A DNA stretch of 62,904 nt, counting the filler, from Dugesia japonica (Eukaryota): NCBI GenBank assembly GCA_001938525.1. It is 4 parts of 4 records of this genome, joined end to end, with 100 filler letters (N's around TTAATTAATTAA, not from the genome) between each part and the next. Parts side by side here need not be neighbours in the genome. Positions count along the whole stretch, not along the records: positions 37,554 to 62,904 come from MQRL01583123.1; 3 more parts are not named here. One strand, written 5' to 3'. Under the pieces are notes generated by a model. That model worked only from the letters and a program-made list of their open reading frames with translations. It ran no database searches and was not told where the DNA came from. This document shows positions 46,779-60,335 of the stretch, in pieces; position 1 is the stretch's first letter; each line of letters starts with the position of its first letter. Made by a program: the position numbers and the translations under genes.

Positions 46779-47193
46779 TATAAAGGTCCATTTTAGTCGA
46801 TTGATATCTGTTTTTTATCAGAGGTTCTAGATATCGTGTGTTTCCCAAACTTTTCACTGCGACTCTTTTCAACCCTTTCCTTGAGATTTTCTGCACTTGC
46901 GTTTTATAGTAAGTCATATAGATTCGATGTTCCGTATGAATATCCTCGTAATCATTACACCCTTCTCCACTTATCACTTTGAACACAATTAGTAATAATA
47001 CTGCATACATACACTGGTTCCATTGACTTGTTGATGGGCTTCCATTTCTCGGAATCTCGGGATCATATTGAACTTCACGCTGTAATTGCGCTTGATTATT
47101 CACCGTTATTACTAAGATTACGATTGTCACTGCAAATGCTAATGCCGCTATTACTGTTATTACCGTTAACAGTTTCCGATTATCGTTAGTCGT
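46768..47193 (-). pseudogene. Membrane-protein ORF at the env position (truncated)
   Basis: LLTVITVIAALAFAVTIVILVITV transmembrane segment, then signal-like MYAVLLLIVFKVISG. Confidence 0.45.
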
Positions 47194-47230
47194 CTAACCA
47201 AAAAATAATTATTGATACAGGTATCAATAC

Positions 47231-48801
47231 TTAGCAAGTCCATTTTGTCCTCCAACAATTTCTTAGAACGGATGGCTTTGTTTCCTCTTTTAGATCTCCC
47301 GATTCGTTTTCGTAAATATGATCCTGTGGTTCTGATTTTGTCATTGCGTATACATAATTTCCTTCCGACGTGTTTTTTCCAGTCGTGGGTGGTTCTGGTA
47401 ACGGAGTTCCTCGACTCGGTCCTTTAATCGTTGCCTGATTCATCATCAAGTTAATTTCTTGTTCTATTAATTGTTGATTCTTTCTCAATCCCTCCTCATA
47501 CTGCCTTGTTTCAACCCTTCTTTCCTCTTGTTTCTCTTGAATTGCTCTAATCTCCTGCATTAACTCAGGTGTGAACAGCATCTCAAACAGGACATTGAAC
47601 TTGAGGTCCATCATTCCAATTTCTACTATCTCGTCCTCGACTTTGTCATTATCTTTTGTGTCGCCCTCAAGAATCCCACAAAAGTTCAACATTTCCGCTT
47701 CCTTCAGCGTTTTAGTTTTCGTTTCTGGTTCCGTGGTTCCATGACATTTTTGCAATCGTTTGCCCCTTTCTCCTTTCCTTGAATCCTGTTCTCGTTTTTG
47801 TTTTGCTCTACGCTGCAGTGCTTGTAGATACAATTTTTTCATCGCTTCACTCTCTTCTTCCCCTTGGACTTTTACGTTCACACAACTGACACAACCTGCA
47901 CTGTCTCACACTCCTGTTTCAAGTAATCATTGGCCTCTGCGTTCGACATGTAATAACGACCGTTTAATACTACGCTCCGCACTTCGGTAACACCTTTTAC
48001 ATAATTTCATGATATCCTCCGCAGGATAGGGCATCGATTAGGCTTCCATTCTCTGCATTCATCGCATACTGTCGGTTCTATCTCATCATTTTTCTTTGAT
48101 GCCGGCTGATCCTTGTAGATCCAATACTCCTGATTCTTTGTCGTAATTATCTGAACACCGGACAGGCATGGTTGGGATAACGGTCTCCATCCGCTCTGGG
48201 GAATTAGTCCTTTCATATTATATCGTCCGCATCTTTGATTGTCGTATTTTCGATTTCTTTTCTTCAAGTCGTCCGTCACTGAAGAATAATATTGATTAAG
48301 CATATCTCGTCTATTTTCATAATTATTTAATTGATCAGTTAATTTGAATTTTTGTAAGATTTCGTCATGAGTTAATTCTATATCTCGTCTAATAGGATTG
48401 GCTGCTGTTGATCCTCTCATATGTACATGTAAGCACTCCAATTCATTGTTAATCATTCCTTTAGCCTTACACAGGCAACCATTACAACATTGCTGATATA
48501 AATCAGCGTCTACTTTCAGTTTGAATGCTATTTCATTACACTGTTCACAGGTGGAACTATAGGGTTCCTTTCTATCTTCTTGTAATGATTCTCGTTGGAC
48601 ACTTTTCTCCATCAACGTTAAGTTATCATAGATCGATTGTAAACAGTGAAAACATGCTTGGCTGATAAGCACTTTATTCAATGGCACTTTATTAAAAGAT
48701 CTCGTACAGTGACATATTTTACATCGCAAGACTAGATTCTTCTGATTACATGTACTCGGATTGCTGTCTACTGATTTGATCATTTTCCCCGTTATCATCA
48801 T
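47231..48801 (-). CDS. Accessory ORF(s) downstream of integrase: Cys-rich (paired CxxC) region and coiled-coil region
   Basis: 264 aa and 216 aa frames; CKIC...CFHC, CEQC...CNGC, CDEC; heptad E/Q-rich stretch. Confidence 0.6.
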
Positions 48802-48967
48802 TATTTGCTGTCTGGCATAATCGGGTATAGATTCTCCTCATCAATTAATCTCGTTTTGAAACTAACTCTTTTTGTCTTTTTAATTTTTTTTTAACCTCCT
48901 CGTCTGTGTCCTCCATTATTGGCTTGACTGGGGCTCATCTCACTCTTTGAACAGTCTCCTCATCGCT

Positions 48968-50302
48968 TTATTTATCATTGTCGTCTTCGGTTGCAGCTAG
49001 TTTACAACTCGATACGTGAACAATACTTGGCTTCTTGAGTAACTTTCCCACTTCCTTTACTTTTAGATTTGTTGCAGTGGTCTCTAACACTAAATAAGGT
49101 CCTTTGTTTGGTCGTTTTAATTTATCTGTGGTTCCAATTTCAATGGTCGGGGTATTAATCAGTATCATGTTACCCGTTTTAAACGTATGGGGCTTTGTAT
49201 CTCGATCATACAATTCCTTATAACTTTCTTGATTAAATTTCGCATTTAACGCTGCCAATCTCCATATTTCTTGCATTCACTCTTTCATGCCAGTAACGTT
49301 ATAATCCTCGTCCATGTACTACAATATCGGTGGCTGATGCTCCAAATCTATTGGCATATTACATTCTCGACCGTACATTAGTTTAAAAGGTGAAGCTTTT
49401 GTTGCGGGATGTTCTCCCATCCGATATGCAAATAAACATAAGTTAAAATATTTGTCCCAATCTCTCTGGGATTTCGTCGCTTACCTCCATAACATTCTAG
49501 TCAATGTCTGATTAAATCGTTATGTCATTCCATCCGTTTGTGGATGATACGCTGATGTCCGTACTTTATGAATATTAAAATAACTAGTCACTTCTTTCAT
49601 TAATTCACTCATGAAATTCTTACCTTGATCCGTCAATATTTTTTTCGGTGGGCCGTATCGATTGAATAATTTATCCACTAATACTCGTGCGATTGTCGAC
49701 GCTTTCTGATCCTTTAATGCAAATGCCTCGGGAAATTTTGATAAATAGTCCACTACTGTCATGATATACACTTTTCCACTATCCGTTGGTGGAAATAGTC
49801 CGATTATGTCCATTGCAATTATATCCATTGGTACCGCTGGCACTGGTATCGGTTGTAACGGCACTTTAAATTTCTTTCCCGTTCCTTTTCTTGCCGCACA
49901 AATCTCGCATTTACTAATCCATTCCTTTACACAGGTCGTAATATGAGGCCAATAATATTTTGCTCGCAATTTTGATTCAGTTTTCTTTGCTGACATATGA
50001 CCTCCTAGAATTCCATTATGGCACTGCTCAAGTATTTTTGCTCGTCTACATTTTGGTATTACTAATAACAGTTGATCACCCTCCTTCATCATTAACCACT
50101 CATTTACCATGGTATATCTACCACTTCGTTTCTTTAAATGTTCCTTAATCGCTTTGTTATACTCCACTTTACTTAAGTCAAAGTGAGATATATATTCTAA
50201 AATTATTTTTACTTCCTCGTCTTCGTCCTGGTCCTTTTTTAATCCGGTAAAATCTTTATTCTCTGCCAATATCATACATAGAGATCGTATGTCTCGATTC
50301 AT
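48968..50302 (-). pseudogene. Integrase (HHCC, DDE, GPY/F)
   Basis: HNGILGGH...CEIC; IAMDIIG; ILTDQG; AYHPQTDG; KGPY. Confidence 0.95.
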
Positions 50303-58050: not shown

Positions 58051-58500
58051 AGATTGATTGGTTTATCTCGATTTTTGGGATATTGGAATGTTGATTGTTT
58101 TGGTTTCTGAAATTAAATAATATGGCCCTATGGCTTCTGCACGCATTCAAATANNNNNNNNNNNNNNNNNNNNNNNNNNNNNNNNNNNNNNNNNNNNNNN
58201 NNNNNNNNNNNNNNNNNNNNNNNNNNNNNNNNNNNNNNNNATTACCATACTTTATTTCTATCACTTTAGCAGCGTATTTACGTAATTTACTTTTATTACT
58301 CATTCATTTATTATACATAAGTAACAATTTTATTCGATTATGTCTACTGGAAGCCCCACTTCAATATTTATTGTTCTGGGGCAGCTCCACTCAGATTAGT
58401 GATTCCAATTATAATTTATAAAGGTTACAACTTACAATATTCCCATACTGATTTGTCTGGGCATTTTCAGATGTGCCTTTGACATATTACTCCACTAAAC

Positions 58501-58822
58501 AGAACATTTCCGCCTGCTCTTGGCAATTTGTCTTCCGGACAAATTTCGCAAATTTATCAATACTCAACTTATCTCCCTTTCCTTTTCCTTTGGTAGAACA
58601 CTCCAGCCGGTTCCTGTCAATTTAGCTTCCAAATAAATTTTTTACTAATTGACGATTAATTCAATTCGACTCCTTTTCTCACGTTGGGACAATCCCACCT
58701 GCCCCTGGTAGTTTATCCTCCGGATAACTTTTAATATCAATTAACAATTACTTTATTTTAACTCCACTTTCATTTGGAAACCTTTCCGCCTGTTCCTGGC
58801 AGTTTATTCCATTGATAAACCT
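58501..58822. repeat. Four diverged ~45 bp cores at ~91-94 bp period in the element leader
   Basis: Cores start at ~58501, 58595, 58686 and 58777. Confidence 0.75.
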
Positions 58823-59956
58823 TTCCCAACTAATCAATCATGAAAAGAAATATCACAATGATTCCATTATCTCAATTTTACATTGCCTATATATAGGATC
58901 ATTTAATCATTTTGACACCATTCATTTTCACTTCGATTTGTTTTCATTTGCTAATAATTTCATTTGCTAATTATTTTCCTAACTCTCTGCCTGTCTGTAT
59001 CAACTAATATTATGTACTAAACCAACTCAATACTTCTATTGTACTTCTATTTTATTTTAATAATTATTATTTACGAGTAGATTTTAAATTATCTATAATT
59101 ACAAAAGAAATAAAATTGAAATATCTAAATTACTCGACTTTCACTTTGTTTAAATTAGGTAATTTTAATCTATGATACATAGATCGAATTTAAAATATTT
59201 ATATAATATTAATAATATAAATCGATTAAAATATAAAATATAAGAGTATTTTCGGCAGTACAATCATTATTTTATTATTAATAACAGTATTACTAAAATA
59301 ATTACCCAAAATTGGGTTCTAATCCCGTTATTTATTAAAATTTATTCAAATTTTACCAAACTGTATCTATTAAAGCCGTTTACAAAAATCATTTACTGCG
59401 AGTTATTATGAAAATTTACTGACCGAACAATAATAATAATAAAATAAATTATTAATTATACTGCGCATGCTATAAAGTACATTAATAAAATATTAATGCG
59501 CAAAATTACGAACATTATTAGATAATTCACAAAATTAAATCTTACATGATCCGAGTGCCCGCATAAAATTTAAAGAATTCATCAGTATTTAGAAAATTTA
59601 ATTTTCCTATTAAGCCAAATCGATAACCATGCTCACGAAAACCACTTAATTTATAATTTAACACCTGAAAGTTTGGATATTTATCACATTCTATTACAAT
59701 TTTATCGGATTTCAAAATTTCAATTCTTTCAAATAATCATTTATCTCGTAAATACTATTCAATTCTGACAGCATTTCATCAATTAGCAAAATTTCTGACT
59801 TCTAAATAATCATTTATTTTCATGATTCCTATTTCACACTAATTTAACGAAACAATTTTACATTTTATTATTTCATTATTTTTATTTCATATTTTTTTGC
59901 TGATTGCAGACTATTTATCCATATGATACAGATTTTATTTGAAACGATTAGTATAG

Positions 59957-59974
59957 ATCCCGGCTGAGCCCCCA
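59957..59974 (-). promoter_or_regulatory. Primer-binding site, tRNA-Pro type
   Basis: TGGGGGCTCAGCCGGGAT, 16/18 identical to the canonical Pro PBS TGGGGGCTCGTCCGGGAT. Confidence 0.85.
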
Positions 59975-60335
59975 AAATACTTTTTGGGTTTTTAGAATTT
60001 TAAATAATTTGAGTTTAATGTCTGCATGCCTCGACCTCAATTATTTTCCTAAATACATAAGTGCGATCTATTTTGTCTAGGGGCATACCTAAAAACCACA
60101 AGCATTTGAGTCACCTCTGTGACATGTCCCTCTTTCCACGGGTTCAGCGCGACTTTGCGGTATCGCGTCTTACGTTTCCTTTTCATGAACCCCCATCTCA
60201 ATCACTCTTAATTGCTCTGTATTGATTCTACATAAATCAGGTTTGATAAAATTAAACTGGTCATACATAACCGCGAATAAACACAAAAGAATCAATCACA
60301 TTGAGAACTATTTATTCGCATCTATTCACATGCAT

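Follow-up and report, generated by a model that had tools for sequence, protein, structure and literature searches.

A decayed giant Ty3/Gypsy retrotransposon, probably of Burro type, with an in-frame gB-like env in Dugesia japonica

The window analysed here is a whole stretch of 62,904 nucleotides of Dugesia japonica DNA (assembly GCA_001938525.1, filler letters included). Its minus strand carries at 46780-59974 a decayed and 3'-truncated copy of a Ty3/Gypsy element, of which 13.2 kb are present. GC content is 0.36-0.38 inside these limits and 0.27 in the flanks, the latter value being compatible with a planarian host, and the strand skews are uniform. From 57561 to 48971 the copy retains 2,837 codons, split over nine frame segments and interrupted by 10 stops, in agreement with the original prediction of a broken polyprotein of some 3000 codons, and its longest open frame has 629 codons, compared with a maximum of 150 in 200 shuffles. 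The Pfam matches follow the order fusogen N-terminus, protease (PR), zf-CCHC, PR, reverse transcriptase (RT), RNase H (RH) and integrase (IN), and so include the PR-RT-RH-IN series with Gypsy-type domains that marks Ty3/Gypsy elements (Metaviridae). Three N gaps interrupt the element (52508-72, 55329-78 and 58154-240), one of them with duplicated flanks. No repeat pair that could represent long terminal repeats (LTRs) was found in the window, where the copy ends at 46779.

Other copies of the element provide clues on whether it forms one unit. Three contig runs (X1, X5 and X8, probably of DNA) and one raw RNA run, of 24 listed, were compared with 45900-62904; contig joints and loose ends are taken from the best-supported rows. 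In each contig run, summed depth, which does not equal copy number, is high and fairly even over 46.5-58.3 kb, at 33-94k for X1, 7-55k for X5 and 0.4-1.4k for X8, and falls in the leader. The listed joints reach depths of tens to a few hundred, against tens of thousands for the element body in X1, a contrast that suggests a high-copy family. Among 37,623 X1 contigs, 4,666 are at least 99% alike, 10,607 fall at 95-99%, 15,289 at 90-95% and 7,061 below 90%; since most are 90-99% alike, the window copy is old. Deleted copies on single contigs join 50772 to 52906 (X1 and X5) and 54168 to 56137 (X1), and thus two of the three N gaps are bridged independently of the assembly. The suspicion that everything upstream of about 53400 belongs to another nested element or to a misassembly is not borne out by the even depth and by joints that cross two gaps. 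Even depth, together with intact relatives in the same order (see below), upholds the claim of one minus-strand unit of at least 13 kb. In the RNA run, of which about 25% was read, 711 reads fall on 45900-62904; 8 are at least 99% alike, 433 are below 90% and 81% run into unlike sequence. There is thus no sign in this run that the window copy is expressed, and one RNA library does not show that it is silent.

The series PR, CCHC array, PR, RT, RH and IN had been read correctly from the sequence, and Pfam recovers every member of it. The first, accessory aspartic protease (52870-53150; PF13975, E = 1.7e-8) has a DTG motif and shares an ORF (open reading frame) with four CCHC zinc knuckles (52575-52805; PF00098, E = 7e-6), both lying in one stop-free frame that runs up to a 65-N gap. 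Beyond the gap lies the second, canonical aspartic protease (52180-52476; PF00077, E = 4e-9). In a protease tree this second enzyme groups with that of the metagenome protein P0041 (SH-aLRT, the approximate likelihood ratio test of branch support, 85), and the first is left with no supported partner. A weak dUTPase-like domain, conserved in relatives, follows across a frame change (51860-52130); a profile of the PR-RT stretch returned a dUTPase as one of three PDB matches (E = 0.99, not significant alone). RT and RH occupy 50306-51556 (PF00078, E = 8e-34; PF17917, E = 4e-38), and an integrase with HHCC, core and C-terminal parts occupies 48971-50302 (PF17921, E = 5e-18; PF00665, E = 3e-14; PF18697) and has in-frame stops, the RT-to-IN frame holding 6 in all.

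Upstream of the first protease, 53395-53661 encodes a signal peptide followed by the N-terminal part of a fusion glycoprotein of the gB type (class III, Monjiviricetes-like). PF24664 is matched with E = 1e-8, or 7e-12 when the frame is read through with X, over positions 5-87 of the 653 in the profile. The glycoprotein N-terminus claimed earlier is therefore real, with the remainder missing: env in the window breaks off after about 90 residues. As in GAG-ENV-POL errantiviruses of the gB type, this env lies upstream of pol; relatives have it in full, and the window copy, with its 90 or so residues, lacks the intact env with conserved cysteine bridges. In tblastn comparisons with four intact relatives, the env alignment ends at 53392-53401. 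Other copies have loose ends in env at 53395 (X8, 2 contigs, 8 letters) and at 53436 (X1, 5 contigs, median 24 letters), whose letters, when translated by eye in the frame of env, agree with the motif seen in the relatives' env. Other copies thus appear to continue into env at 53395, and these loose ends, in combination with the point at which the relatives' alignment stops, indicate that the shortness of env is most likely due to a deletion of roughly 550 env codons in the window copy. A spliced env, using an AG/GTAAGT look-alike at the stop of the env ORF, was considered and rejected, as the env alignment runs about ten codons beyond that point and no RNA joint is listed there.

The accessory region (55323-57561), which includes the 629-codon ORF, holds a first ubiquitin-like candidate, a large helical region and a second ubiquitin-like domain; a third candidate lies at 54810-55031. 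Of the three ubiquitin-like domains proposed originally, there is weak evidence for the second (55901-55650), with sub-cut-off Pfam matches to FERM_N (0.0065), PI3K_rbd (0.009), ULD_3 (0.018) and RA_2 (0.03). The other two were recognised by eye: the first spans a frame change, and the third has 13% identity in alignment A4 and no Pfam match. Profile A4 found 1wx8, which we take to be a ubiquitin-like domain, as one of three PDB matches (E = 1.2, not significant alone). For the 629-codon ORF no homologues were found among longer or similar-length proteins or in metagenome contigs; single-sequence structure predictions were of low confidence (predicted local distance difference test scores of 32.5 and 47.7), and Foldseek gave no match. 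A relationship of this ORF to influenza NS1 was discarded, the atlas matches of 0.76-0.77 lying below the noise level. The predicted AT-hook is visible at about 54677-54648 (feature limits 54648-54677), with an RGRP core, and AT-hook-like motifs also stand upstream of env in the metagenome proteins P0273, P0123 and P0194. Next to env, a weak BCL2-like helical domain (53760-54210) aligns with the pre-env helical domains of two relatives, L002 and P0273; a profile of the three found the BCL2-family protein BOK as two of five PDB matches (E = 1.4-1.7, not significant alone). This stretch and the dUTPase-like one, both weak, were absent from the original prediction. The weak ubiquitin-like, BCL2-like and dUTPase-like matches count only because each fold was predicted beforehand from the annotation of Burro, a giant planarian retrotransposon.

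At its 5' end the element has a further Ty3/Gypsy trait, a tRNA primer binding site. This is of tRNA-Pro type (59957-59974), with 1 mismatch to a pattern built from the published 12-mer in supplement 1 of PMC13524379. The pattern has its sole match in the window at this site, where 0.03 would be expected by chance, and at least one match occurred in 3 of 100 shuffles; the predicted primer site thus stands, at 59974-59957, with a coordinate that was one base off. Downstream of it runs an AT-rich leader (58751-59956; GC 0.24) that lacks any minus-strand ORF of at least 80 codons. A leader of about 2 kb had been proposed; the leader exists but is only some 1.2 kb long, since 58750-57562 has a coding-like GC of 0.36. 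The latter stretch (57562-58750) lies at the expected Gag position and is decayed; a gap of 87 N interrupts it, and it carries a Ser-rich ORF. The relative P0273 has a capsid (PF19259, E = 0.011). A capsid at 58750-58034 was suggested by eye and dropped, as Pfam, pairwise and profile tests gave it no support. Rfam returned no match in 58700-62904.

Some observations were made around the primer site itself. Just upstream of it, a roughly 100-bp element at 60074-60174 has very high depth (310,700 in X1 at 60108) and a minus strand ending in CA. At either border the RNA run shows loose ends whose sequences are mixed, and the element resembles a short, abundant repeat that is transcribed, or a mini-LTR. 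Contigs in two runs join 59072 to 60076, indicating that the primer site, along with the greater part of the leader, is missing from some copies. Further upstream, 61157-61660 (minus strand) is a 167-codon coiled-coil-like ORF with no significant Pfam match, and the 2.9-kb segment that contains this ORF and precedes the primer site may be a long 5' LTR.

Downstream of IN, the 2 kb or so of extra ORFs that had been described are present at 46780-48837 on the minus strand: a Cys-rich ORF with paired CxxC, a charged ORF, and a third that has two hydrophobic segments and is cut off at the 3' junction. None of them has a Pfam or PDB match, and their read depth is the same as that of pol. Immediately beyond, and outside the element, lies a truncated Polinton phospholipase A2 gene on the plus strand (46489-46779; PF08398, E = 1.5e-9), with a double-jelly-roll capsid (PF21738) at 44919-45629 upstream of it. 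A loose end at 46779 (X5, 2 contigs) suggests that other copies, too, extend beyond the Polinton junction.

To place the element, its RT was used in a search that gave 3,399 matches. Among the 120 of these that were listed, the closest are metagenome proteins; no relatives were found in the viral contigs searched. A quick tree of RT alone (123 rows, two near-duplicates left out) places the window on one branch with ten relatives (SH-aLRT 96). An RT-RH tree unites 13 of 34 rows in one branch (99/96), with the window sister to P0041 (100/98) and these two on a long separate branch; it was built without the seven intended outgroup rows. The trees are midpoint-rooted and hold no named reference elements.

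The intact relatives have ORFs of 3,400-3,700 amino acids with the plan Gag-Ubl-like-helical-Env-PR(s)-RT-RH-IN-membrane cargo, Ubl denoting a ubiquitin-like domain. The single ORF of P0273 (3,735 amino acids) contains a capsid, two CCHC, two Ubl-like stretches and, likewise identified by eye, an AT-hook, then a helical domain and a full env, followed by two proteases, RT, RH, IN and a membrane protein. L002 is a 5'-open ORF of 3,426 amino acids with env and three proteases; P0123 has a Gag CCHC, env and four proteases and is without RT; P0194 has env, a protease, two C2H2 fingers, a protease, pol and a third protease; P0041 has the env C-terminus, a linker, PR and RT; and L001 and L003 have a protease and ankyrin repeats after IN. 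Env lies in frame upstream of PR in P0041, P0272/P0011, P0194, P0273, P0123 and L002. Its position between the accessory domains and PR within a polyprotein is shared by the window, and in P0273 and L002 this arrangement occupies a single ORF. Thus, P0273, L002, P0194, P0123/P0005, P0272 and P0041 resemble the window in belonging to the same RT clade (P0123 having no RT), in their in-frame env, in having one to four proteases, and in post-integrase membrane cargo. In contrast to the window, the metagenome relatives have intact ORFs, carry CCHC in Gag where Gag is present, and have an RT only 55-65% identical to its own. Pfam order, depth and these single-ORF relatives all sustain the description of a giant, cargo-laden Gypsy element.

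Two or more proteases were found by a motif scan in 6 of 14 relatives (7 with P0005, by Pfam), several others being partial. Extra proteases follow the env transmembrane region in P0273, P0194, P0123, L002 and the window; in P0194, L001, L003 and L004 they come directly behind IN, some 870 residues from the RT motif. All of them keep D-T/S-G or D-T-A, motifs for which the scan selected. Some further features of the relatives were noted in passing. P0123 and P0005 are both on contigs of 21,743 bases and, if these are the same contig, one element would have six proteases. RNase T-family (DEDDh-type) exonuclease ORFs lie downstream of the giant ORF in L002 (10617-12104) and L001 (8592-9920). An immunoglobulin domain in P0272 (1936-2006) and weak fibronectin-type-3 matches in L001 (1-6660) form post-integrase cargo resembling cell-surface receptors.

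Most of this architecture is already in print, since 2019, for the planarian Burro. PMC6431247 describes a polyprotein of about 5,000 amino acids with Gag-CCHC, MATH, Ubi2/SUMO-like, BCL2-like, env, PR, dUTPase-like, RT, RH and IN. Its env is in frame between gag and pol and matches mononegavirus glycoproteins; BIR and ankyrin are also present. The internal region of Burro reaches up to 25 kb, and more than 30 kb with LTRs; by comparison, our element would measure about 15 kb with the missing env, its 3' end being lost. Burro-type elements are among the largest LTR retrotransposons known. Like Burro (GYPSM1), the element in the window has a giant polyprotein with an in-frame mononegavirus-like env, followed by PR, RT, RH and IN, as well as accessory ORFs and a high copy number; weak candidates for the Ubl-like and BCL2-like domains before env, and for the dUTPase-like domain between PR and RT, stand in the Burro order. 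It differs in having two proteases with four CCHC between them, where PMC6431247, as far as its text was available, names one PR and places CCHC in Gag. It also has an AT-hook and as many as three Ubl candidates, with the capsid undetected. In Schmidtea mediterranea, PMC13524379 reports six GAG-ENV-POL elements of the gB type (Smed_errantivirus_1-6, cysteine type C1a). These also have env before pol, and their env N-terminal motif is, by eye, about half identical to that of the window over 31 residues; in the part of that paper used, no primer binding site is assigned to them and accessory domains are undescribed, and none of its Schmidtea rows has, by eye, an env segment identical to the window's. 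Plant Ogre/Tat elements are likewise large Gypsy elements with extra ORFs, but their size comes mainly from LTRs, and the available text of PMC6431247 mentions no env for them. Hence the earlier view that the domain combination had not been described does not hold, given the Burro order (PMC6431247) and the Schmidtea gB-type elements (PMC13524379), while the accompanying suggestion of a Burro relative agrees with the published domain order. What seems unreported is the repetition of proteases in one giant protein across several relatives: repeated proteases, CCHC between two of them and an undetected capsid were not found in the literature searched, a result that depends on wording and leaves the primary Burro papers outside its scope.

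The domain order, the broken state, the multi-copy unit and the position within a clade whose members are giant and have single ORFs are observed. On this basis we consider it probable that the locus holds a dead copy from a high-copy Ty3/Gypsy family that is of Burro type and GAG-ENV-POL in organisation, with a gB-like env in frame. Several points weigh against this. The Burro type, and with it the proposal that the element would work like a Burro, is assigned by published domain order, and the trees hold no Burro sequence. MATH/TRAF, BIR/RING, SMC and ankyrin are all missing from the window ORFs, of which the 3' part is lost; nevertheless ankyrin repeats, a Burro feature, do occur in the clade members L001 and L003. 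At the Gag position no capsid was detected by Pfam, by a profile of 66 Gypsy capsids or by comparison with P0273. The Ubl, BCL2 and dUTPase matches, at E values of 1-2, are leads only; a three-sequence profile of the relatives' Ubl domains missed the candidates in the window, and the helical part of P0273 searched alone gave no BCL2 match. The loose end at 53395 consists of 2 contigs and 8 letters only, and no listed contig spans the whole element. Finally, the roles given below to the extra proteases are pure inference.

In an alternative scenario, which we regard as unlikely, the window would represent an independent giant lineage that works in the same mode and acquired its Burro-like layout by convergence or from shared ancient ancestry. 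GAG-ENV-POL elements are not monophyletic (PMC13524379), and this would also suit the missing MATH, BIR, RING and ankyrin, the long branch shared with P0041 and the want of an identical published env segment. However, three accessory folds surround env in the same order as in Burro, ankyrin is found in clade members, and an env motif is common to the window and the Schmidtea errantiviruses. Less plausible still is an amplified chimera, in which the half with accessory domains, env and first protease was template-switched onto the CCHC-PR-pol of another element and then copied as a unit, so that the intact family may lack a capsid of its own and need a helper. At the usual gag-pol junction a CCHC array stands immediately ahead of PR, and this is what the window has; moreover, its closest relative P0041 has neither an extra protease nor CCHC there, no capsid was detected, and the first protease is without a supported partner in the tree. 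Yet a single stop-free frame covers the first protease together with the CCHC array, the slot between proteases is filled by other cargo in relatives (P0194 has C2H2 fingers and L002 a membrane protein there), and P0041, sister by RT, has env upstream. That unrelated pieces were brought together by misassembly or nested insertion, at the N gaps or at 53400, is very improbable: the three gaps, the duplicated flanks of one, the linkers elsewhere in the window and the abrupt Polinton junction invite the idea, but depth is even, joints span two gaps and intact single-ORF relatives have the same order.

Gypsy elements multiply by tRNA-primed reverse transcription and insertion by integrase. If the element is a Burro-type copy, the intact family would produce one long RNA, primed by tRNA-Pro and translated into a polyprotein of about 4,000 amino acids or more. 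Signal peptides and transmembrane segments would thread env and the post-integrase cargo through the membrane of the endoplasmic reticulum, and the accessory proteases might free Pol and cargo at membrane-to-cytosol junctions, possibly in cis or paired with a neighbouring protease; this role is proposed because they lie where cytosolic enzymes must be cut from membrane-bound parts. The CCHC array and the AT-hook would bind nucleic acid, the gB-like fusogen might let particles pass between cells, and the ubiquitin-like and BCL2-like modules could, in the way proposed for Burro, influence turnover in the host along with its ubiquitin and cell-death pathways. A role of Burro1 in stem-cell survival, with planarian stem cells protected, is attributed to Lee et al. 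2026 by PMC13465017. After insertion, the window copy would have lost about 550 env codons and its 3' end, and gained stops and frame changes.

We put forward, as a doubtful extension, that the clade cuts its membrane-threaded polyprotein with a set of paralogous proteases, two to four in each ORF and perhaps six in an element, acting as junction-specific cis proteases or as single-chain dimers. In the window family, moreover, the nucleocapsid knuckles would have been relocated to a site with a protease on either side, and high copy number would have been reached without a canonical capsid. A multi-protease processing strategy for retroelements was not found in the literature searched, again dependent on wording. 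The window copy and its relatives suggest that the Ubl/BCL2-like/env/pol plan is that of a broad and modular clade, whose cargo slots can be swapped and whose proteases are repeated, and raise the question of how a retroelement cuts a membrane-threaded polyprotein of 4,000 amino acids.

The rest of the window contains other mobile remains. Decayed Polinton/Maverick-like pieces lie at 786-7806, 14500-20825 and 43850-46779, with DNA polymerase B, integrase, double-jelly-roll capsid and phospholipase A2. A second decayed Gypsy pol (PR and RT; 37999-40254, plus strand) is unrelated to the giant element. A 195-bp stretch occurs twice, inverted and 97% alike, at 60554-60748 and 37554-37748, the second copy lying upstream of this other Gypsy pol. 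The 100-base N runs around a six-frame stop palindrome at 10486-10585, 27569-27668 and 37454-37553 are linkers.

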